IMG/VR virus record: IMGVR_UViG_3300037245_003487
Coordinates: 105,441 to 122,610 of that record
Strand: one strand, 5' to 3'
DNA from: a virus
Taxonomy: Duplodnaviria; Heunggongvirae; Uroviricota; Caudoviricetes
Length of the DNA: 17,170 nucleotides
Shown here: one piece after another, positions 2,603 through 16,986 of the stretch
Position numbering within the stretch: position 1 is the first letter of the stretch
Layout of the letters: every line of letters starts with the position of its first letter
The notes under the pieces: generated by a model
Seen by the model: the letters and a program-made list of their open reading frames with translations, nothing else
What the model was told of the DNA's origin: nothing
Database searches by the model: none
Made by a program: the position numbers and the translations under genes

Positions 2603-3994
2603 TTATGCCGAGATAACTCCCAATTTTAGGGCTTCTGTGATTCTAAGGTCTCCGCCAGTTCTACGTCTTGTATAAAATTTTACAAAAGGAACTACAGTAT
2701 AAGGATCTCTAAGAACTGAGATGCCTAATCTATCAACTATCTGATATGATTTTGACCAATCACTTAAGGCTACTGCTAAAGCACCTGCTGCAACTATAGG
2801 CATATCTGCTGCCATTCTTACAGGAAAACCCATTATTGTATCTGCTCTATCTTCTGAAATACCATTTTTCCATATGTAATCACCAATACCATTCTTGAGC
2901 AAAAGTGCTGCAAGCACTGTTGTTCTATTCATTAGCCATGTACCATTTCCGTGATATTGCTCTTTCATGGCATATTTAATATTTTTAAACCCATCAGCTG
3001 TCAATGCGTTAGCTGCACCCATAGCTACTTGTTCTACAGTAGTTGGAGTTGTGCCATCAGCATAACTCAAGAAACCCATTGGTTTTCCTTGACCATCACC
3101 TGATACAAATGCAGTTGCTTCAGTCCTTGCAAATTTCTCTGCAACTTTACCAGCTAACCATTGTTCAATATTGATAGCTGAATCTTCAAGTAATTGCTGT
3201 GTCGCTCTAGGAGCTGCATACATTTCATGAACGAATATTTTTTTCATTCCCATATCAGGTGTTGCTGTCTCAGGTCTATTTCCTGTTTCTGAAACCCAGC
3301 CGCAAGCCGCTTCATCATTATCAGTAGGGAATTCAATAGAATCTGTACTAATAGATGTAACTGCTGCAAGTTGTCTGATAGGTGAAGTTTCATATAAAGT
3401 TTGAATAATCTTAGCACCAGTCGCTGGGGTTACTGTATAACCGCCATGAGGCTGAACTCCAACTGAAAGTGTTTTGATTTGTTCAGGAGTTATGCCACTT
3501 CCATCTCTATCACTACCTTTAATTAAGTATTGCTCAAAATTCTTAACATACTCTTTATATTCTTCGCCTGTATAGTCCATATTTTCAAGTATAAATCTTG
3601 ATGTGTCTTTTTTTTGGGTAGCTCTACAAGCAATAAAATGATCCTGAACTTCTTTTATAGAAACAGGACTTTCTTCATTAGCTCTAATTCCACCAGGTCT
3701 TTTTACTAACAATTCAAAATCATCCATTCTTTTCTTAAATTCAGCTTCTTTAGCTTCTTTTGCAACAAAAACTGCATCCAGTTCTTCTTTTCTAGTTACA
3801 ATAGCTTCTTTTAATTTTTCTATTTTAGTTTTATCAGCATATTTTGAATCATTTTCATCTTGAGCTGATTTAACTTCTTTTCTTAATTCTTCATAATTCT
3901 TCTTAACAGCGTCGTAATCGCCACCTAATCTTTTAATTTCAACAAGTGTATCTTCATGCACTTTTGTTTCATTTATGCTTGTTTCGTCAGACAT
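2603..3994 (-). CDS. Major capsid protein, HK97 family
   Basis: 463 aa with an N-terminal coiled-coil delta domain, then GGYTVTP, SPIRQLA, WVSETG.RPET, LLEDSAINIEQWL, 'E..AFVSGDG..KPMGFL' and LRDPYT..PFVKFY..RR.GG. Confidence 0.95.
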   Translation of the reverse strand: MSDETSINETKVHEDTLVEIKRLGGDYDAVKKNYEELRKEVKSAQDENDSKYADKTKIEKLKEAIVTRKEELDAVFVAKEAKEAEFKKRMDDFELLVKRPGGIRANEESPVSIKEVQDHFIACRATQKKDTSRFILENMDYTGEEYKEYVKNFEQYLIKGSDRDGSGITPEQIKTLSVGVQPHGGYTVTPATGAKIIQTLYETSPIRQLAAVTSISTDSIEFPTDNDEAACGWVSETGNRPETATPDMGMKKIFVHEMYAAPRATQQLLEDSAINIEQWLAGKVAEKFARTEATAFVSGDGQGKPMGFLSYADGTTPTTVEQVAMGAANALTADGFKNIKYAMKEQYHGNGTWLMNRTTVLAALLLKNGIGDYIWKNGISEDRADTIMGFPVRMAADMPIVAAGALAVALSDWSKSYQIVDRLGISVLRDPYTVVPFVKFYTRRRTGGDLRITEALKLGVISA

Positions 3995-4024: not shown

Positions 4025-4765
4025 TCATCTTATTTTTTTTAGTTTGTTTAAAAGTTCCTCAGTATGTTTTTTACCGAGTTCCAAATTGACTTTTTCGTCA
4101 ACTATCATCTGTAATTCTTCATCAGTTAAGAAATTGCCTCTCGCAAACGCCTTTTCCTTACAAAGTCCTACAATATATTTAGCTGCGTTTACTGTCATGC
4201 TACATTCATCTCGCAATGCCATTTCTAGTTCACGCTCATTTTTTGCTTCTTCTATAATACTCTTTACATTTGTAACACTTGCTCTAATATTAGAAGGAAA
4301 AGTTACAATTGAAATTTCCCATAAATCTAATTTATTTAAAAATCTTATTCCTTTTTTATCATCCCATTCAACTGCATCCTCTAATCTATTGCCTTTATCA
4401 TCTCTTGCGATATCAAATCCAATAGACAATCCTTTTAATGCACCTTGTTTTAATAATGAATGAGCTTCTCTTGCTCTCTGGACTTCTAAATTTAATTGAC
4501 CCTGAACCTTTAGTCCTTTAGAATTTTCTACTAATTCTTCCCAGACACCAATTGGCTCATCAGATCTATGTTGATATAATAAAACAACTCCAGTACCATT
4601 TCTACCACCATTTGCTATAGATTCTTTAAAAGCTCCTTGTCTTATTACATCCCCATGAGAATCTGGTTTTCCGCCAAATGTAGATCCATAACCAGTAAAT
4701 ACTCCTTCATCACTTACATCTTCTGCTTTTATTTCAAAAGGAATTTTTTTATATTCAAGTTTCAT
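4025..4765 (-). CDS. Prohead maturation protease, HK97 family
   Basis: Motifs FTGYGS.F...DSHGDVI..GAF, LLYQH, PIGVW, LKGLSIGF and LWEISIVTFPSN. It lies directly upstream of the capsid gene. Confidence 0.95.
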   Translation of the reverse strand: MKLEYKKIPFEIKAEDVSDEGVFTGYGSTFGGKPDSHGDVIRQGAFKESIANGGRNGTGVVLLYQHRSDEPIGVWEELVENSKGLKVQGQLNLEVQRAREAHSLLKQGALKGLSIGFDIARDDKGNRLEDAVEWDDKKGIRFLNKLDLWEISIVTFPSNIRASVTNVKSIIEEAKNERELEMALRDECSMTVNAAKYIVGLCKEKAFARGNFLTDEELQMIVDEKVNLELGKKHTEELLNKLKKIR

Positions 4766-5043: not shown

Positions 5044-5336
5044 TAAAACCTCCTGGTCTTTTCTGCTTTTAATTGTTTATCATCGTCCAAGATGATTTTA
5101 TACATCGGCATATCTTTACCTTCTGGAATCTCATCAAACAACTCATTACATACTGCATCATATTCAAAACTATCTAATACAAACATAAATTCACATCTAA
5201 GAATTATCATTTTACCCATTAGTTTCATAACCAATTCAGGCTCTTGTATAATCAATGCTCTGTTTAATCTAAAAGATCCCCTTTTCTCACTTAAAGATAA
5301 AGTTTTTTCTTTTTCATCACTCACTATCATCTCCAT
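5043..5336 (-). CDS. Hypothetical phage protein (start uncertain: ATG 5336, ATG 5330 or GTG 5324; the ORF track start at 5381 is probably too long)
   Basis: Its stop is coupled to the next ORF. A GGAG lies 6 nt before the GTG at 5324, overlapping the portal stop. Confidence 0.7.
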   Translation of the reverse strand: MEMIVSDEKEKTLSLSEKRGSFRLNRALIIQEPELVMKLMGKMIILRCEFMFVLDSFEYDAVCNELFDEIPEGKDMPMYKIILDDDKQLKAEKTRRF

Positions 5337-7095
5337 CACTTGGTTCTTTCTCTGGTTGGCTGTTATTAAGCTCACCATCATCTTCTATATCAGCATTCTG
5401 AGTTTTACCCAATACAGGAGTTAAAACTGGACCAGGCTGCAGTATAGTATAATTCAGGGGAACTAAGATAACATCACTGCCGTCTAGATCGTCCATACCA
5501 AGTATTCTTCTTTTTTCATTTATTGTTAGGAAATCACTTTTCTGCATTCTTTCCCATAATCTTTCACGTTTAATAGATAATGCAGGTATTTTTTCTAGAT
5601 CGAAATCTAAAAATAATTTCTCTGGATTATCTACTCCAAAGATCCAGTTATTCAACTCTTCTTTGATAATATTTAAGTAGGATACTACTGTATCTTCCCA
5701 AAAAATCATTCTTGCTGTTTCAAAATTACTGTTATGAACAACAATTCCATCTGCAATAAAGTTATGACTTCCTTCTACTTCTATATCAAAAACATCTTCT
5801 GCTTCTAATTCATTTATTTCTTTTATTTCAGAGAAATTTAAATATTCAATTGGTATAATATAACCAGCTAAATTACCTCGATGATCCTCATAAGGATTAG
5901 TGTGCATTTCAACAATAACATCACCAACTTTTAATCTTCCAACTTGAACATAAGTTAAATAATACTTATCCTGATATGTTTTTCTAACAAGTACTGGATG
6001 ATTATTAGTAGCTTTAAGCGTATTGTTTTCAGCAATAATTTCATAAAGTACTTTATGTCCAGTTTTCATTTGTTCAAGAACTTTTCTTTCTTCAAGTCTA
6101 TTACCGACTAATGAATAAACATAGTCTCCAACTGAAAGCTCTGAAATGCTTCTTAAACCTTTTGATGTTGCAACTTTAGCATAGGATGGTAAACAATAAG
6201 TACTATCGCCTATAATACCAAGCATTTGAGGTGGAACACCCCATCCTGAAGAAATGCCCCTTGCTAATTCCCTATTAGATTCCATGAAATCCAATTCTTT
6301 TGGAGTCCAATTATAAGGAACTACTTTAGCTCCATTCTCAACTATCAAATTACTTCCAGCACCATTAGCGCCAGAATGTTTATCTTTTAAAAGGTTTTCA
6401 AGTCTATCATATTGTTGATCACTTAATGTGCCATCAACTGTAAATACTAAACCTGGTCTACCCTCATTTTCAAGTATTTTCTTTTGCCATTCTATAGCTT
6501 CATTCGAAGTATCAATTTCTCTCATTAATGCTTTTATTGGAGATGCACCCCAGAAGTCATCTAATGGATTTGGTAATTTTGAATGTAAAACATCAGAATC
6601 ACCTGAAACTGGATCAATTTTAAATGGTATTGCTTTGTCAAAAGTATAACTATCTAATCCGCCAGTATTAGGATTAGTATTAATCTGCATTTTATCGGGT
6701 CTTAATGTATAAAGTTCTCTAGGATATTTCTCATTACCAATCATAACTCTTTCTAAAAAAGAATTACCACTTGCTAATAAATAAATAACCCACTTAAAAA
6801 GAACTGCATTAAATGTTTCATGAGGATTAGCTTTTTTTAAAAGATTCATTATTTCGTGATCTTCAACTTTATCTATCTTATCATTATTCCATTTAAAAAG
6901 CTTCCATGTTACATTACTTATAGACTGAGCAATCATAAACATAGCTCTAAAACAAATCCTATTTTTAAGATATGTCTCAGCTATAAATTGTTCATAATTA
7001 TCAGGAGTCCAATGAGCACTGCCCATTTTAGTATTAATAATCTGTGTTCTGCTTTCTTTTATGTGTCTTGGTTTAAATATATTTAAAAAACCCAT
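5317..7095 (-). CDS. Portal protein, HK97 family, intein-containing precursor (592 aa; about 437 aa after splicing)
   Basis: Motifs NPHET, 'YLLASGNSF', LRPDKM, 'DDFWGASPI', 'S.PKELDFME', 'GVPPQMLG', TY/SNFE and 'FLTINEKR..LG'. It lies upstream of the protease and capsid genes. Confidence 0.95.
   Translation of the reverse strand: MGFLNIFKPRHIKESRTQIINTKMGSAHWTPDNYEQFIAETYLKNRICFRAMFMIAQSISNVTWKLFKWNNDKIDKVEDHEIMNLLKKANPHETFNAVLFKWVIYLLASGNSFLERVMIGNEKYPRELYTLRPDKMQINTNPNTGGLDSYTFDKAIPFKIDPVSGDSDVLHSKLPNPLDDFWGASPIKALMREIDTSNEAIEWQKKILENEGRPGLVFTVDGTLSDQQYDRLENLLKDKHSGANGAGSNLIVENGAKVVPYNWTPKELDFMESNRELARGISSGWGVPPQMLGIIGDSTYCLPSYAKVATSKGLRSISELSVGDYVYSLVGNRLEERKVLEQMKTGHKVLYEIIAENNTLKATNNHPVLVRKTYQDKYYLTYVQVGRLKVGDVIVEMHTNPYEDHRGNLAGYIIPIEYLNFSEIKEINELEAEDVFDIEVEGSHNFIADGIVVHNSNFETARMIFWEDTVVSYLNIIKEELNNWIFGVDNPEKLFLDFDLEKIPALSIKRERLWERMQKSDFLTINEKRRILGMDDLDGSDVILVPLNYTILQPGPVLTPVLGKTQNADIEDDGELNNSQPEKEPSDGDDSE
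5731..6195 (-). mobile_element. Mini-intein (155 aa, Cys301-Asn455) in the portal protein
   Basis: It starts CLPSYAKVATSKG (block A, with VGDYVY), has ATNNHPVLV (block B TxxH) and DVFDIEVEGSHNFIADGIVVHN (blocks F/G), and is followed by a +1 Ser. Removing it restores the portal motif GDSTY-SNFE. It is too short to hold a LAGLIDADG domain. Confidence 0.95.
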
Positions 7096-7103
7096 TTTCT
7101 ACC

Positions 7104-8525
7104 CTATATCGATCTTATTATTCTATTTTGAAAACCTAAATCAGTTTTGTATATTGGCTGATCAAATCCATCATTGGTTAAAGTATTATCACTACCTGTT
7201 ATTGGCTCCGCAAATTGCTCTTCTCCAATATATAGCTTTCTATAATCAAGAAACTTAGTTGCGTTTTGTGGGTGAACACCATCATTCAGTCCATAATAGA
7301 CCCTAGTAATGTCCTCACTGTTAAATGTTTGACCTGATAAGTCAGATACTAATTGTCCCCCGACCCATATTTTTAATGTTCCTGCTGCATAATCAAGATG
7401 GTATTCAAGGGGAATCCAAATATTTTCTATCAATGTTGGGTAATTATTATTCATTGCATTTGCAGAAGTAGCTATAACAACTCTATTTTTTGTTATATCA
7501 CCAGTTCCTTCTACAACTTGTGTATACTCTGCTTGAACAGTTGCACTATTTAACCAATTAAAACCAATAGTGTTTTCAATCATGAATAAAACAAACTTAT
7601 CATCATAATCATGATTTACATCAAAGTTTAAGGGTAATTTAAATTCAAAATATCCCCAAATTTCACCGTTTTTTAATCTATTTGGTACAGCGGATGACCT
7701 GCCACAACCACAAGCATTCCCATTAAAATTATATCTTGTATAATCTGTTCCCACTTGAGTTATAGATGTTATTTCATCAGTTCCGCCAATCCCAGTACCT
7801 AAAGAATATTCACTAAACTCTGCAAATCCCCCTAAATCATAAGGACTGTAATTAGTCCATTTAGCTGGTTTTGTTCCGTATCCGTTGTATAATGCTAAAA
7901 TTAGTCCATCGGAAGGAACTGAGCCTGTCCAAGAATATACCCTGGGGTCACATAATTCAACACCGCCTAAAAATCCTGCTGGATCATCGTAAGCATTAAC
8001 AATCATCTCACCTTCGACTTTTAGAGTCTGTCCAAGCGTTTTTATATGCACGCCATCTAAATATACTTTCATGCTGCCAACGCCATTATAGACCAAAACC
8101 AAATGGTGCCATGTTGCAAAATCATACTCAGTAGCTGCTAAAATATCTCCGCTGGGAGTATCAATAGTACCATCCCATGATCTTACTGCCGTACCGCTAG
8201 TGGCTTTCCATCTCATTATGCACCCTTGATGTAATATCTGGTGCCTAAAAAGAAATGAAATAACAGGATTTGAAACACTTGGTATTCCTGCAACATTTCT
8301 TAAAACGTCCTTCCCTGTTCGTGATCCTTTCTTATAGCCTCGTTTGTGAAGACCAATATAACTTCTATCAGTCATTCCTATCAATGGGTTTAAAGTATTT
8401 GATTTACACCATCTTATATCGTTGTCACCATCATAAGGAGTTAGATGTTTACCACCTACAATATCATTTAATGTAGATCCTGTGCCTTCATCACAAGGCC
8501 AGTGGTGTTTTAGTGTTACTGCCAT
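7104..8525 (-). CDS. LamG / concanavalin A-like lectin-domain virion protein
   Basis: HWPCDEGTGSTLND and TWHHLVLVYNG...KVYLDG are LamG-like signatures. A second ConA-like segment (WIPLEYHL...GTLKIWVGG) lies in the C-terminal half. Confidence 0.75.
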   Translation of the reverse strand: MAVTLKHHWPCDEGTGSTLNDIVGGKHLTPYDGDNDIRWCKSNTLNPLIGMTDRSYIGLHKRGYKKGSRTGKDVLRNVAGIPSVSNPVISFLFRHQILHQGCIMRWKATSGTAVRSWDGTIDTPSGDILAATEYDFATWHHLVLVYNGVGSMKVYLDGVHIKTLGQTLKVEGEMIVNAYDDPAGFLGGVELCDPRVYSWTGSVPSDGLILALYNGYGTKPAKWTNYSPYDLGGFAEFSEYSLGTGIGGTDEITSITQVGTDYTRYNFNGNACGCGRSSAVPNRLKNGEIWGYFEFKLPLNFDVNHDYDDKFVLFMIENTIGFNWLNSATVQAEYTQVVEGTGDITKNRVVIATSANAMNNNYPTLIENIWIPLEYHLDYAAGTLKIWVGGQLVSDLSGQTFNSEDITRVYYGLNDGVHPQNATKFLDYRKLYIGEEQFAEPITGSDNTLTNDGFDQPIYKTDLGFQNRIIRSI

Positions 8526-8556
8526 TTATTATTTTCCACCCTTTCTTAAATTATCC

Positions 8557-8952
8557 TCAGCCCAGTACGGCCCAACCAATTACTCTTAAACTCAACTCAT
8601 TTGCACCACTTTTACATGAAAGTGTAAAAATCATCTTTTCATCGCTTTCAAATACTAAAGGATCGAGATAATCAACCCATAAATTTTGCGATCCAATTAT
8701 TGCATAACTTAAAAGAGTCATGTTAAAAATAGTACTTAAATTACCGCTTTGACTTGTTGCTACTATAAAATCTTCTGTTGATGCAAAAGCAGACGAACAA
8801 CGAACTCTTATTTCTTTAAGCTCCCATCTTTTACCAATATCTATTGTTTTTTCTAATATACCATCATCTCCATTGGCTGCAAAAAACGTAAACTGTGTTT
8901 TTCTATCATAAGGTGTCATAACCTCAGTGTCAAAATCACTATAATTTCCCAT
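8557..8952 (-). CDS. Hypothetical, probable virion protein (paralog of 11490-11888)
   Basis: 131-aa ORF, co-oriented, alignable by eye with the 132-aa ORF. Confidence 0.75.
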   Translation of the reverse strand: MGNYSDFDTEVMTPYDRKTQFTFFAANGDDGILEKTIDIGKRWELKEIRVRCSSAFASTEDFIVATSQSGNLSTIFNMTLLSYAIIGSQNLWVDYLDPLVFESDEKMIFTLSCKSGANELSLRVIGWAVLG

Positions 8953-8961
8953 TATTTTTCC

Positions 8962-10050
8962 TTATTTTCTATTCTCAATGTAACCACCAGCACTTATTCT
9001 AAATTCTAATAGCCCTGATAAATCATCATTTACTGTCATTGTCATTTTATCATCATCTTCAGCTTTTAATATTACTGCCTGTGGAAATAAAACATTTATT
9101 GCTACCCATGAATTGGTTCCATCTGAACCATAACCTGTAACTTGTCCATTACTAAAATTCATCATATCTAAATGTCTTTTAATAGATGTTGTTACTATAG
9201 GTTCGCCATTTTTAATTCTCTGATAAGTTATTCCTGTATCTAACTCTCCAACCCCAAGCCAACCATCATATGGTATTTTTGGCATTGTACTATCAGTTAA
9301 TACTGGATTATACACATCAGCATAAACTATCATAAATTTATCAACATAATACCATGTTCCCTGCTGTGGTTTCACGGTATATATGATTGGATCACCAGTT
9401 TCTTCAAATTGTATATCATCAAGAAAATATTGAGGCTTAATTCCAGTTGAAGCTTCTTGTTGAAATCTAATTGCATCAACAGTTATAGTTCCTGAAACTC
9501 CTAAATCATCTAATGGTATAGTTATCTTTTGCCAAGCATCAAAATCTGAGAAATTAAAATAATCTTCTAAAAATACCTTATTGCCAACTTGCGTTCCAGT
9601 ATCTATATCCCAACAATAAACTGATGTAGATTCGCCTAAATCCCAATTATTATCAATATATATCCAAATAGTCAAACTTACAAAACCACTTAAATTAACA
9701 TCTGACCCTTTTGCAAATTGCCATATATCATTTGTATTAGGTTTATTAGCATAAACACTTTGTGAACCACCATGAAATTTTAACACACTATTGAATACAA
9801 CTGTAACACCAGTTATATTTGAGCCAGTCCATAATATAGAATCAATACCATCATGAATTTCTTCGGGAGTACCGCCAGCAGCAGCATTCTGGTTCATGTT
9901 TACACCATAATCTGCATTAGTAAAAAATGATAACCTATTCTCAAAAGTTTTAAGAGGGCGTGTAGCTACTACTAATCCGTTTTTTTCTGCTCCATTCTCA
10001 ACTTGTGCTTGAATACCAGTCATTGGATCAGTAATTATGCTTTTTATCAT
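8962..10050 (-). CDS. Probable virion protein with a carbohydrate-binding-module-like beta-sandwich
   Basis: 362 aa. The segment 'LSGFVSLTIWIY...WQKITIPLDDLG...DAIRFQ...YFLDDIQF' resembles galactose-binding/CBM11-like folds. The product is an inference. Confidence 0.65.
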   Translation of the reverse strand: MIKSIITDPMTGIQAQVENGAEKNGLVVATRPLKTFENRLSFFTNADYGVNMNQNAAAGGTPEEIHDGIDSILWTGSNITGVTVVFNSVLKFHGGSQSVYANKPNTNDIWQFAKGSDVNLSGFVSLTIWIYIDNNWDLGESTSVYCWDIDTGTQVGNKVFLEDYFNFSDFDAWQKITIPLDDLGVSGTITVDAIRFQQEASTGIKPQYFLDDIQFEETGDPIIYTVKPQQGTWYYVDKFMIVYADVYNPVLTDSTMPKIPYDGWLGVGELDTGITYQRIKNGEPIVTTSIKRHLDMMNFSNGQVTGYGSDGTNSWVAINVLFPQAVILKAEDDDKMTMTVNDDLSGLLEFRISAGGYIENRK

Positions 10051-11489: not shown

Positions 11490-11888
11490 TTATGCTTCAA
11501 TAGCCCATCCCCTTACTTCTAATCCATATGTGTTATTTGCACTTCCGCATGACATCTCAAAAACTAAATGATCATCAGAATTTAAGGATACTTCCTCACC
11601 TGAAGGCCATATAGCTCTATAATCTTGTATGTCAAGCATAGTATGACTCAATATTATATAATTAAAGTTTGAGCCTCTATCTGCACTTATATATATTTTT
11701 AAATATTCTTGTGATATAAAAGGAACAGACCAATGCATTCTAATTTCAGTTAGAGTAAATCTTCTAGCTTTTGCATGTTCATCTGGACCAATAGACTGTT
11801 GTACAGCCCCATTAGATCCATTTTCACCTGAATAGAATGCGAACTCACTCCATCGATCATGGGCGTATATATCCCCACTAAAACTCAT
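11490..11888 (-). CDS. Hypothetical, probable virion protein (paralog of 8557-8952)
   Basis: 132-aa ORF whose start overlaps the last codons of the HNH gene. Confidence 0.75.
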   Translation of the reverse strand: MSFSGDIYAHDRWSEFAFYSGENGSNGAVQQSIGPDEHAKARRFTLTEIRMHWSVPFISQEYLKIYISADRGSNFNYIILSHTMLDIQDYRAIWPSGEEVSLNSDDHLVFEMSCGSANNTYGLEVRGWAIEA

Positions 11889-12555
11889 ATTTACCGCCCT
11901 TACTCATATTATCAAAACCCCATAAAGGCTGTAAATTGGTATAATTAAAACATTTTTCTTGTTCTTCTTTTTTTGTTAAATCAAAACTGCAGCAAGGACG
12001 AATATGATCTATATGCCATCCATAATAACTATAGTTATCAAAGGTCATTCCTGGTTGGAATTTAGATTTCAAATACAACTTTAATTCTTCAATTGAACAA
12101 CCTAATAATTCAATTGTTGATTTAGATTTATATTTACCTTTTAATGCACCCCAAATTCTACCTCTTAAATTATCAGTTAGTTTATAATTAATATCATTTT
12201 TGTATTTTTCTAATTTATATGCACTTATTTTATTTCTATTATTTTTTCCGTATACCCTATCTTGCTCTCTTTTACATATCTTGCATTTAGCATTCAATCC
12301 ATTCTTAGAATTTCCGTTTTTATTAAAATATTTTAAAGTACCTGGGTACTCTTTACCGCAGCAAGTACATTTTTTAAGTACATTTTTATCTAAAATAAAA
12401 TTTTGATTTCTTAATTTATATTTTTCTTTATATATTTTTTTACATGATTTGCATTGTGATTCTAATCCATATTTTCCAAACTTCGCATTATTAAAATTAT
12501 CTTCAATAGCTGATAGTTCAGTATTACATTTAGTACATATCTTAGTTTTTATCAC
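11878..12555 (-). CDS. Free-standing HNH (homing-type) endonuclease with two Zn-ribbon modules
   Basis: GTG start with an AAAGGA RBS. It has LLGCSIEEL, WHIDHIRP and NYTNLQPLWGFDNMSKG, plus two CxxC...CKxC modules. It is a paralog of 1658-2527. Confidence 0.85.
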   Translation of the reverse strand: MIKTKICTKCNTELSAIEDNFNNAKFGKYGLESQCKSCKKIYKEKYKLRNQNFILDKNVLKKCTCCGKEYPGTLKYFNKNGNSKNGLNAKCKICKREQDRVYGKNNRNKISAYKLEKYKNDINYKLTDNLRGRIWGALKGKYKSKSTIELLGCSIEELKLYLKSKFQPGMTFDNYSYYGWHIDHIRPCCSFDLTKKEEQEKCFNYTNLQPLWGFDNMSKGGKYEF

Positions 12556-12623: not shown

Positions 12624-14048
12624 TTAAATTGTTCTTATATTGAAGCTGGAATTACATGACTCATATAAACATAGAAGCAAAGCGTCCGCCATATCTGGAC
12701 TATTAAATCCACGTTTCTTATAATCATCCTTGCTCTCAATACATCTTCTACCTTTAAGATCAAGTTTCCATTGTCTATTAATTAACTCTTGCTCTAGATC
12801 TCTATCAAATTGACATGAGCAATTTTTTATTTTACTTGATGCTTCAAACCACATTTCACTAGAAGAATTATTGTATGAATCAGGGTCTTTAGCCTTAGAT
12901 CCAAAATTAATCCCTTTTACATTGTAATTATCTGCTTTTAACATATCTGCAACACCAGCACCAAGGCCAGTTTCATCGACATTAATCAATGTGCTTTTAT
13001 CAAAATCAGCAAACTTTTTTAACTCTTCAGTTATTGTTACTAAATCTTGATTTGATATTGTTTTTTTATCTATTATTTTTAAACCTTTTCTTTTATAAAA
13101 TACAGTTCTGTCGATCCCGAAACGAGCCAAGTCTGCGCCAATAAACACTTTCCCATCATCATTAAAATTTTCATCTTCATGATTTGCAAACATTTGTTTA
13201 ACATCAGCATAACTTACAGCTGTATTAGCACCCTCTGAAACTATTTCGCCTAAAACCTTAGTTTTGAACATTACAGAGTTTACGCCCCAATCACGTTCGC
13301 CATCTTCAATGTAGCCTTTACCTGATATCTGAGCGCCAAGGTCCTTATATGATTTTTCAATTCTATTAAAATTAAAATCCAATCCCTGGAACTTTTCACC
13401 AGTTAACTCAGGAGTATCATAAGCACTAATGCTTATTTTATGCCAAGGACTATCTGGTAAAAATGCTTGCTGATATTTACTTCCTATTTCAACACCATCT
13501 GTAGTACTTATTATCAACCATCTAGGGTCTCCAGCATTCATAGCACCCATGGCGCTATCGAACATCCATTCCTCGACACCTTTTGCTTCATCAAAAATAT
13601 AAAGCAAATGAGGAGCATGAAAACCTTCAGCTCTTGCTGGATCATCAGTACTAAAACCTAACATTTCATGTTTAGCATGATCTCTGTCTTTTACTTCTAC
13701 CTTTAAACAATCTCCAATAAGGAACTTATTGCTTTGATAGAAATTTCTTATTTCACCCCAAAGTAGTTTATCTACTTGTGGAAAAATAGGTGCAGTTGTA
13801 ATTACCTTGCTTTCAGGAAATACATTATAAAACCAACATGCTGCAACTGCTGCTGTGAAAGTTTTACTAACACCATGGGCTGCCTTTACAGCGGTCCTTT
13901 TATTATCTCTAATACTATAAAGAACTTCACGCATTTTACCCCAGGTGTACACACCGAGTATGTGCTCTGCCCAAAAGACAGGATCATCTCTATATTTTTG
14001 GAATAAATCTGCTAATGCATCATCATTTATTTCTGTTTCTTTTGCCAT
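12624..14048 (-). CDS. terL: Terminase large subunit
   Basis: DPVFWAEHILG, a Walker A-like KAAHGVSKT, Walker B YIFDEA, and an RNase H-like nuclease domain with IGADLARFGIDRT, VDETGLGAGVAD and SPDMADAL. Confidence 0.95.
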   Translation of the reverse strand: MAKETEINDDALADLFQKYRDDPVFWAEHILGVYTWGKMREVLYSIRDNKRTAVKAAHGVSKTFTAAVAACWFYNVFPESKVITTAPIFPQVDKLLWGEIRNFYQSNKFLIGDCLKVEVKDRDHAKHEMLGFSTDDPARAEGFHAPHLLYIFDEAKGVEEWMFDSAMGAMNAGDPRWLIISTTDGVEIGSKYQQAFLPDSPWHKISISAYDTPELTGEKFQGLDFNFNRIEKSYKDLGAQISGKGYIEDGERDWGVNSVMFKTKVLGEIVSEGANTAVSYADVKQMFANHEDENFNDDGKVFIGADLARFGIDRTVFYKRKGLKIIDKKTISNQDLVTITEELKKFADFDKSTLINVDETGLGAGVADMLKADNYNVKGINFGSKAKDPDSYNNSSSEMWFEASSKIKNCSCQFDRDLEQELINRQWKLDLKGRRCIESKDDYKKRGFNSPDMADALLLCLYESCNSSFNIRTI

Positions 14049-14511: not shown

Positions 14512-14621
14512 TCAATCTCATGGTCAAATGTAAATTAATTGTAATAGCAGGAAACTGGGTATGGATAAAAGCATTGAAGTCAAACAATGTTAAATTTTTT
14601 ACTTATACCAACCTACTGTAC

Positions 14622-14650
14622 TTGACAAAAATAAATAAATATGTTATTAT
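14622..14650 (+). promoter_or_regulatory. Sigma70-type promoter
   Basis: TTGACA (14622-14627), 17 nt, TATTAT (14645-14650), with an extended TG. A GAGG RBS lies at 14661. Confidence 0.7.
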
Positions 14651-14669
14651 TAAAAATAAAGAGGTTTTT

Positions 14670-15512
14670 ATGGAAAGTGGTTATATTTACGTTATAAGAA
14701 GCGAATTAGTAAAAAACTGGATCAAGATTGGAAGATCTACAAATTTATTTAATAGAATGAAAAGTCATTCATCTTCAATGCCTGGTAATATTGAAAATTT
14801 ATTATCATTCCATGCTGATGGATACAAAAAAACAGAATTATTCTTACATCATTTTTTTAAAAATTATAGAGCTACGCCTAAAAGAGAATGGTTTATTTTT
14901 CCTGATATAATTATAAAAAAAATTAAATTTCTCAATTTTATATTAGATGAATCTAAAAAGACACATCATGATGATGTTAAAGATATCTTTATTAAAGAAT
15001 TTAATGAAAATATTCATACAGAAAATGGAATATGTTATGACTGCGGAAATGAATTGGATTTAAATAGTTATAATTTTCACAGGGACAATAATTCATTATC
15101 TAAATTTAAATCTATTTGTAAAAAATGCAGGAATGAAAAAGAAAAATTAAAGTATGGCGGCTACAAAAAACAAAAGGAATATAGAAAAGAATATAATTAT
15201 ATCTCAATAATAAATAAAAAAAATAAAATAATATTAAAAGAGTCCGATGGGCCACTTCTAGAAGATGGAATATTATTAATTATAAAAACAAGTGATAATG
15301 CTAGATTTATAAAATTTTTTACCGATGAGTTTTCCTTAGAAATGAATGACTTTAAATTTAATAAATTATTAAAAGGAATAAAAAATGTTAATGACCAATT
15401 ACAGATAAATACAAATTTTTATACTTATGATTACTTTAGGGTTAGTCATGTTATTGGTCTTTTTGAAAAATATTGTAAAACAAATGTAAATGCTGTTGAC
15501 AACGAAAATTAA
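14670..15512 (+). CDS. GIY-YIG superfamily endonuclease (T5orf172/MUG113-like) with a Zn-ribbon
   Basis: GYIYVI...WIKIGRSTNL..RM...E..LH..F..YR...REWF is a T5orf172-like GIY-YIG pattern. The start was reset to the ATG at 14670 because the promoter and RBS lie inside the longer ORF-track call. A CYDC...CKKC module lies at 15033-15128. Confidence 0.8.
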   Translation: MESGYIYVIRSELVKNWIKIGRSTNLFNRMKSHSSSMPGNIENLLSFHADGYKKTELFLHHFFKNYRATPKREWFIFPDIIIKKIKFLNFILDESKKTHHDDVKDIFIKEFNENIHTENGICYDCGNELDLNSYNFHRDNNSLSKFKSICKKCRNEKEKLKYGGYKKQKEYRKEYNYISIINKKNKIILKESDGPLLEDGILLIIKTSDNARFIKFFTDEFSLEMNDFKFNKLLKGIKNVNDQLQINTNFYTYDYFRVSHVIGLFEKYCKTNVNAVDNEN

Positions 15513-15524
15513 TTATGTTACATT
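15496..15524 (+). promoter_or_regulatory. Sigma70-type promoter for the 253-aa gene and its RNA tail
   Basis: TTGACA (15496-15501), 17 nt, TACATT (15519-15524), with an extended TG. An AAGGAGG RBS lies at 15541-15547. Confidence 0.7.
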
Positions 15525-16315: not shown

Positions 16316-16432
16316 ATTTATATATCAGCATTAGTCTTAGCTTTACAAGGAATCTTAGCTCATAGTAGCTATGTTTTCCGATCAGACTTTTGCCTAACTA
16401 GCTTTATTCATTAAAATCTATTTTACATACAA

Positions 16433-16587
16433 GATGATGGTTTTTTAAACATCCTGTGCGTTGGTTCGAATCCAACATCTGCATCTGACAAGTGGATGAG
16501 TATATAATATGAATAAAACTCTCCAAGTGTTTGATGCGGATTAGCTCAGTGGCAGAGCAAGGATATTAGCAACAAAAACCAAAGATC
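16433..16587 (+). ncRNA. Circularly permuted tRNA-like RNA, unit A (3' half before 5' half)
   Basis: 3' half: ATCCT 16451-55, GTGC, T-arm GTTGG-TTCGAAT-CCAAC 16460-76, ATCTGCA 16477-83. 5' half: TGCGGAT 16535-41, TA, D-arm GCTC-AGTGGCA-GAGC 16544-58, A, AGGAT 16560-64. The acceptor (7 bp, one G.U) and anticodon (5 bp) stems pair only in the permuted order. Confidence 0.8.
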
Positions 16588-16609: not shown

Positions 16610-16680
16610 TACTAAAAGGTTCGACTCCTTTTGCTTCCAATTAAAAAACCAAGGGAGCAGCACAAATGGATGGTGCAGTA
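16610..16680 (+). ncRNA. Circularly permuted tRNA-like RNA, unit B (compact, alanine-type acceptor)
   Basis: T-arm AAAGG-TTCGACT-CCTTT 16615-31 and TGCTTCC-A 16632-39, a 13-nt linker, GGGAGCA 16653-59, D-like arm GCAC-AAATGGATG-GTGC 16660-76. AGTA 16677-80 can pair with TACT 16610-13. Confidence 0.65.
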
Positions 16681-16692
16681 CAAACAAACTTA

Positions 16693-16730
16693 GGGGGCTA
16701 TACAGGATACATGTGGCCCCCATTTTTATT
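16693..16730 (+). terminator. Intrinsic terminator closing the ORF plus RNA transcript
   Basis: GGGGGCTATA pairs with TGTGGCCCCC (10 bp including G.U) and is followed by ATTTTTATT. Confidence 0.7.
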
Positions 16731-16817: not shown

Positions 16818-16961
16818 ATGTCAATCAGTTTAATTTTAGTTGTAGTTTTAATTAGCTTTGTATGTTTTAAGGTTTTCCCAAAGATAACCCTTAAAAACAT
16901 CTTAAAACCTCTAAAAAGTGGCACTAAGAAAGTCAAGACTACATGGAATGAAATAGATTAA
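16818..16961 (+). CDS. Small single-pass membrane protein (47 aa; absent from the ORF track)
   Basis: Manual translation gives MSISLILVVVLISFVCFKVFPKITLKNILKPLKSGTKKVKTTWNEID. It has an AAGGAG RBS, a hydrophobic N-terminal helix followed by a basic tail, and a terminator right after the stop. Confidence 0.7.
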   Translation: MSISLILVVVLISFVCFKVFPKITLKNILKPLKSGTKKVKTTWNEID

Positions 16962-16986
16962 TGGGGTTCGTCCCCATTTTTCTTTT
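16960..16986 (+). terminator. Intrinsic terminator
   Basis: AATGGGG-TTCGT-CCCCATT followed by TTTCTTTT. Confidence 0.7.

Follow-up and report, generated by a model that had tools for sequence, protein, structure and literature searches.

A permuted tRNA-like module with the alanine identity set in a phage noncoding RNA linked to DUF7873

The 17,170-nt stretch of DNA analyzed here (the window), which is the last part of a complete phage genome of 122,610 nt, contains two small tRNA-like units, A and B, downstream of a gene of the DUF7873 family. An initial annotation, made from the sequence alone, proposed that these RNAs may be alanylatable tRNA mimics rather than decoding tRNAs, which raises the question of whether unit B is made to be charged with alanine or whether its alanine mark is incidental to another role. 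The main determinants for AlaRS are G3.U70 together with A73, G2-C71, and G1-C72, with G4-C69 and G20 as minor determinants in bacteria, and neither AlaRS nor LeuRS needs the anticodon (PMC9976931).

Genomic context of the RNA

The left part of the window contains the head and packaging genes on the minus strand, among them those for the terminase (12624-14048), portal (5317-7095), protease (4025-4765), and major head protein (2603-3994). A T5orf172 (GIY-YIG-like) gene (14520-15512) and two endonuclease VII/HNH-like genes (11878-12555 and 1658-2527), which flank or interrupt this module, are likely homing endonucleases. On the plus strand, a sigma-70-like promoter (15496..15524; 10/12 matches with an extended -10, a consensus match only) lies ahead of the gene coding for the 253-aa DUF7873 protein (PF25283; 15554..16315, +; Pfam E value of 1e-69), a gene conserved upstream of the RNA as its partner, and probably drives the gene and the RNA together. 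The structure model of this protein (pLDDT of 87) had no Foldseek match at E values up to 0.001 and no clear structural match in the PDB, where the best Z score (7.9) was to helical bundles.

The region following the gene begins with an RNA leader (16316..16450, +) with short repeats of the AG-Y-Y-T type, which is a candidate for the protein-binding part, and continues through units A and B to a G+C hairpin followed by a T run (16693..16727, +). The loop of this hairpin has an RGGRUA-like motif that recurs in related loci (sense strand in 107/157, antisense in 50), and the hairpin was not called by a strict terminator scan. As a whole, the 420-nt stretch after the DUF7873 gene folds well (z = -3.9). 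Further downstream, a bidirectional terminator-like hairpin (16960-16978) comes after a 47-aa open reading frame (16819-16962) with a hydrophobic N terminus.

Elsewhere in the genome, we identified a CCA-type tRNA nucleotidyltransferase of 444 aa with an HD domain (L467:1435-2769; G000 about 8463-9797, +), whose best NCBIfam match, PRK13299, was below the cutoff; none of the nine tRNA or tRNA-like genes of the phage has an encoded CCA. The tRNA region also includes an RtcB fragment (L466:1492-1956; G000 about 66618-67082, -), a frame of 126 to 154 aa that has a Pfam match limited to the C-terminal part and looks like an internal deletion. TROVE/Ro60 (PF05731) is absent from the complete genome, a very divergent copy aside, while control genomes gave matches. 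A further permuted tRNA-like module of the same phage (G000:C1:50121-50253, -; about 1500-1790 of locus L465) has A73 and an E value of 4e-4 with the YrlA model, below the cutoff. No DUF7873 or TROVE gene lies beside it, and it is located directly after a normal-order tRNA-like element with a long insert and upstream of a NUMOD4-HNH endonuclease gene.

Structure of unit B

The second module of the noncoding RNA that follows the DUF7873 gene, unit B (16610-16680, +), is tRNA-like and permuted. It consists of a T arm (16615..16631, loop at 16620-16626), the acceptor 3' strand (positions 66 to 72) with the discriminator A73 (16632..16639), a 13-nt A-rich linker that closes the acceptor stem (16640..16652), the acceptor 5' strand (16653..16659), and a D-like part (16660..16680), all on the plus strand. 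CCA is not encoded after A73. In the acceptor stem, 16653-16659 pairs with 16632-16638 to give G1-C72, G2-C71, G3.U70, A4-U69, G5-C68, C6-G67, and A7-U66; G1, G2, and G3 are 16653-55, the wobble pair is 16655/16636, and the discriminator is A16639. The D-like part comprises a hairpin (16660-16676) with a 4-bp stem and a 9-nt loop containing GG, followed by a strand that pairs with 16610-13 in a weak closing helix (pair probability of 0.33 to 0.5). The remaining pairs have probabilities of 0.84 to 1.0 in the partition function for 16610-16680, except 7:66 (0.55). The identity set, pairings, coordinates, and compact permuted fold described in the initial annotation are therefore correct base for base, and its T-loop and D-like loop with GG are where it placed them; what it described as almost no anticodon loop is the absence of the whole anticodon arm.

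The folding energy of unit B is ordinary (z = 0.15), and its full architecture had 0 occurrences in a 4.9-Mb Markov-simulated genome. A refolding of 5+7 bp was rejected, being 4 kcal/mol worse, while one of 6+6 bp is about equal in energy and still has the G.U as pair 3. There is no U8-R9 connector, with 0 nt between the acceptor and the D-like stem, and no U at -1. These two absences and that of an encoded CCA make unit B a weaker candidate for processing than most members of its family. Its T arm and acceptor had no exact match among viral contigs. The only other records of the same phage (L140 and L141) are identical over the RNA, and neither Rfam nor ARAGORN had a match in the window. The tRNA-Lys(UUU) of the same phage (G000:C1:65415-65487, -) has as its acceptor 3' strand the same 7-mer as unit B at 16653-16659, as well as an identical T-loop sequence, both possibly by chance.

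A family of permuted modules downstream of DUF7873

From collections of viruses, genomes, and metagenomes, we gathered 228 DUF7873 loci, selected by similarity to the protein of this phage, and scanned with a structural descriptor the 203 that had enough flank. Of these 203, 158 have a permuted module after the gene, compared to 0/203 on the reverse strand, 0/203 in shuffled sequences, 6/184 upstream, and 6/170 further downstream. About one-fifth of the loci lack the module, mostly chromosomal Bacteroidota copies. In the set L060-L083, most chromosomal genes from Bacteroidota (mainly Cytophagales) have no downstream module, unlike phage copies and those of other phyla. The cassettes adjoin genes for TROVE/Ro60 (L227:1-1119), the major vault protein (L225:1-363), and an RNA ligase (L461:2117-2469), as well as tRNA clusters. 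No paper naming DUF7873 was found in the literature searched, and this widespread RNA family is unpublished under that name.

Once near-duplicates were removed, 166 distinct modules were left, which belong to two classes. The larger one (122 modules, including unit A) has a 4-bp D stem, a mixed discriminator, and an encoded CCA in 68 members, while the Leu-like class (44 modules) has a 3-bp D stem, A73 in 40, and a CCA that is seldom encoded. Throughout the family the acceptor is 7 bp, with G1-C72 in 134/166, a stem extension of at most 1 bp in 142/166, CCA encoded at 74-76 in 72/166, and U at -1 in 82/166; U8 is present in 164/166, a feature that the descriptor rewards. The Levitt 15-48 pair, which is not scored by the descriptor, covaries in 115/121 modules (G-C in 65, A-U in 50). 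The 7-bp acceptor, G1-C72, and this covariation are marks of substrates for RNase P and CCA addition, as in the YrlA RNA of Mycobacterium smegmatis, which has a stem of 7 bp, undergoes cleavage by RNase P, and acquires CCA (Chen et al. 2014, PMC4201824). Position 73 is A in 57, U in 50, G in 41, and C in 18 of the modules, and pair 3:70 is G-C in 58, C-G in 58, A-U in 26, U-A in 19, and G.U in 4. Judging from these frequencies, the family appears to require no particular amino acid and looks built for end processing, not for alanine.

Unit A (16451..16564, +; fold z = -3.5), another permuted tRNA-like module, falls in the 4-bp-D-stem class and is formed by a T arm (16460-76), the acceptor 3' strand (16477-83), U73 (16484), a 50-nt linker, the acceptor 5' strand (16535-41), U8-A9, and a D arm (16544-58). 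It does have the acceptor G.U pair reported in the initial annotation, at 4:69 (16538/16480) in the 7-bp register, along with U1-A72, U73, and an extended stem. The other register considered there, of 6 bp with the wobble at pair 3, was rejected, since the 7-bp register is set by U8-A9 and by the family, a shift would make pair 2 C-G, and L222, the nearest relative (which ends before unit B), has only Watson-Crick pairs in the counterpart of unit A, with no wobble. By its sequence, unit A is not a candidate for alanine.

The acceptor stems of unit A and its closest relatives are prolonged by 2 to 12 extra bp, and this favors a quite different explanation, in which the acceptor remains a closed hairpin, as in Salmonella YrlA, and unit B only provides a shape or is an accessory copy in decay, its G.U being tolerated and never meeting AlaRS. 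Most YrlA RNAs are thought to be closed (bioRxiv 10.1101/312249), and the loss of the anticodon arm and U8 in unit B, the lack of a second module in many close relatives, and the RtcB fragment of the phage speak in the same direction. However, unit B itself has a stem of exactly 7 bp, G1-C72, A73, and an unpaired linker, its pairing has remained perfect through rearrangement, and the encoded CCA and G1-C72 across the family point to processing. We consider a permanently closed acceptor quite unlikely.

Origin of unit B

The positional orthologues of unit B, found at six loci (L223, L224, L227, L464, L016, and L019), are permuted Leu-like modules with Leu-type D arms, A73 in five of the six, and G3.U70 in L224 only. 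Their D arms (3-bp stem and Leu-type loop) presumably resemble those of tRNA-Leu. Four of them (L223, L224, L227, and L464) carry, behind the D arm, a complete anticodon arm with a 7-nt loop, but their anticodons (CGU, CAU, CCU, and UGA) mismatch both their own acceptors and their D arms. At about 15 other loci, the position of unit B holds a normal-order D-anticodon-T fragment with a broken acceptor. The second element of the cassette, whatever its acceptor identity and whether permuted or in normal order, in many cases retains an anticodon loop of the form Y-U-N-N-U-A-A, with an anticodon ending in U (L223, L224, L227, L464, L007, L012, L013, L037, L042, L068, L145, and others), and this loop is possibly a decoy for anticodon nucleases or t6A enzymes.

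The sequence of unit B can be aligned to those of L224 and L227 across the spacer, T arm, linker, and 3' hairpin, and unit B appears to descend from a leucine-type permuted module with loss of the anticodon arm and the U8 core. Tentatively, it may have gained about 11 nt after G3, with the former D-stem strand now closing a new hairpin, a model with a shuffle p value of 0.01 against L227 and weaker values against the other orthologues. The 12-bp acceptor/T helix is perfect despite the remodeled lower half, which suggests selection on the upper half. In the protein tree, an open fork joins the DUF7873 protein of this phage and the relatives concerned, so that G3.U70 may have arisen once or repeatedly.

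The permuted order, as in two-piece tmRNA and in algal or archaeal permuted tRNAs, together with the 7-nt anticodon loops of four orthologues, could indicate that unit B matures into a decoding tRNA-Ala or is the tRNA-like domain of a two-piece tmRNA. Against the former, unit B has no anticodon arm and the anticodons of its orthologues fit neither their acceptors nor their D arms. As for the latter, unit B lies only about 15 nt from the 3' hairpin, and no tag frame is present. Neither Rfam nor ARAGORN at its default threshold found a tmRNA, and no smpB or tmRNA was found in the phage genome, so the analogy with tmRNA and SmpB drawn in the initial annotation is unsupported. Low-threshold ARAGORN tmRNA calls were discarded as noise (184 genome-wide). 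Both versions are largely refuted, and we regard them as highly improbable.

Alanine identity of unit B and its relatives

Unit B has the four main determinants, G1-C72, G2-C71, G3.U70, and A73, and lacks the minor ones, with A4-U69 in place of G4-C69 and an A after GG in the D-like loop where G20 is expected. Conservation of the G.U position across homologous loci, proposed in the initial annotation as a check, is not seen at the family level, as G3.U70 occurs in only 4 of the 166 distinct modules (G.U counts at acceptor positions 1 to 7 are 1, 2, 4, 3, 4, 15, and 10) and, among the seven positional orthologues including unit B, in unit B and L224 only. On the other hand, all four G3.U70 modules have A73 (4/23 versus 0/39 of G3-Y70 modules; Fisher p = 0.016), and L224 keeps the complete set, G1-C72, G2-C71, G3.U70, and A73, despite changes on both strands in pairs 4, 6, and 7.

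Two symmetric scans of IMG/VR covered permuted modules starting with five G, with A73 (n = 27) and without it (n = 13), the second scan being a control fixed before its outcome was known. U was found at 70, 69, and 68 in 7, 1, and 0 of the 27 modules with A73 and in 1, 3, and 3 of the 13 without it. The plain frequency of U70 (7/27 versus 1/13) is not significant (p = 0.24). The position of the wobble depends on the discriminator, being 3:70 in 7/8 viral modules with A73 and in 1/7 without it (p = 0.01 for the viral modules alone, 3e-5 pooled, and 0.03 with the DUF7873 cases collapsed to two lineages), a comparison between related sequences that are not phylogenetically independent and whose pooled test was framed after the outcome of the first scan was known. 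Eight of the 10 alanine-marked viral modules are in TROVE-encoding contigs, which indicates that the mark recurs in YrlA-like RNAs too; a search of these contigs found no DUF7873, and its positive control also gave no match. Several TROVE-linked permuted modules, selected by pattern, have the full alanine set with varied pairs 4 to 7, while the pattern-found viral modules of the Leu type linked to DUF7873 have G3-C70, the two patterns not being symmetrical.

By the A73 link, the retention in L224, and the IMG/VR scans, the G3.U70 mark does not appear to be random, which leads to the possibility that alanylation itself is selected. The opened mimic would be charged by AlaRS, which is among the few synthetases independent of the anticodon, in the unit B lineage and in several Ro60-linked YrlA lineages, and the alanyl end would recruit EF-Tu, shield the RNA, or report the charging state. 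This is favored by the strict company of G3.U70 and A73 in the DUF7873 set, by the survival of the set in L224 amid changes in its other pairs, by the Leu-type D arm of L224, which leaves the mark unexplained by descent from tRNA-Ala, by the A73-dependent wobble position in the viral scans, and by the TROVE-linked modules. Nevertheless, most positional orthologues lack G3.U70, the U70 frequency alone does not differ significantly, descent from tRNA-Ala genes explains the viral GGGGG-type modules without charging, unit B has neither G4-C69 nor G20, and the Leu-type viral modules found by pattern carry G3-C70. We therefore regard selected alanylation as a rather unlikely explanation. The family as a whole does not appear to be an alanine mimic, and alanine loading would be at most a lineage-specific trait. 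The proposal of alanylatable mimics in place of decoding tRNAs thus stands as far as mimicry is concerned (no anticodon arm in unit B and the YrlA order) and falls for the alanine identity of unit A.

Proposed function

The explanation that we favor, with a probability of roughly one-half, is that unit B is a tRNA mimic of YrlA topology within a DUF7873-linked RNA and acts as a processed decoy or tether, alanine not being the purpose of the system. An RNA of about 410 nt would be cotranscribed with DUF7873, and the linker of unit B would be opened by RNase P and 3' trimming, as suggested by the family features and the M. smegmatis precedent. A host or phage enzyme would then add CCA, yielding an RNA in two pieces whose tRNA-like end is free. 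DUF7873 may bind this RNA, which would serve as a protein-bound decoy of tRNA or as a tether for tRNA-handling proteins, protected by its mature end. Such a role in a tRNA-related conflict is suggested by the neighbors of the cassettes, namely, TROVE, the vault protein, RNA ligase, and tRNA clusters. We lean slightly toward unit B being opened in vivo; cutting of the linker must precede charging, and an opened unit B, judged by its determinants, is probably chargeable. G3.U70 would in this case be a variant of the unit B lineage that probably lets AlaRS charge the opened RNA. Counting against a purely incidental mark is the co-occurrence of G3.U70 and A73 above expectation, which it does not predict.

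A bolder proposal, which we consider unlikely, is that a subset of anticodon-less permuted phage RNAs (the unit B lineage and some Ro60-linked YrlA RNAs) are opened, CCA tailed, and alanylated under selection. If true, they would be a class of aminoacylated bacterial noncoding RNAs other than tmRNA that could act, for instance, as a decoy bound by EF-Tu in the course of infection. Aminoacylation of Y-RNA-like tRNA mimics has been in question since 2014, and unit B is a compact natural substrate on which to test it, with L224 and L227 as a natural pair of orthologues with G.U and G-C. The association of G3.U70 with A73 in viral permuted RNAs offers a new lead. Should charging fail, unit B would be one remodeled member of the DUF7873-linked family.

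Comparison with known systems

Two-piece tmRNA (RF00023 clan) shares with unit B the acceptor 3' strand before the 5' strand, the set of G1-C72, G2-C71, G3.U70, and A73, and the lack of an anticodon. Unit B differs in having no mRNA-like domain or tag and no SmpB, in its D-like stem, and in an alanine mark that is not conserved in its family. With the class II bacterial tRNA-Leu, the orthologues of unit B share the 3-bp D stem, the Leu-type D loop, and A73 (40/44 in the class), but they are permuted, their anticodons mismatch, and unit B has replaced the Leu-type D arm. In algae and archaea, circularly permuted tRNA genes likewise have a closed acceptor in the precursor, but they are spliced into decoding tRNAs, while unit B has no anticodon arm.

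The closest resemblance is to YrlA (RF02553; structure in bioRxiv 10.1101/312249), whose permuted order of T arm, acceptor hairpin, and D arm is that of unit B and for which aminoacylation has only been suggested (PMC4201824; bioRxiv 10.1101/312249); no paper combining YrlA with a demonstrated alanine charge was found in the literature searched. The partner of YrlA is Ro60/TROVE and that of unit B is DUF7873, with no Ro60 on the same strand nearby or genome-wide, and unit B differs further in lacking U8. RF02553 had no match in the window at E values up to 5, its best match in the genome being outside the window at 24 bits (gathering score, 69), and no GNCGAAN0-1G Ro60-binding motif was evident by eye in 16316-16460. 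The TROVE-linked modules are also below the RF02553 cutoff, which suggests that the model is narrow. Unit B thus fails YrlA membership, with no Ro60 and no Rfam match, but by analogy it would work like a YrlA of the M. smegmatis type.
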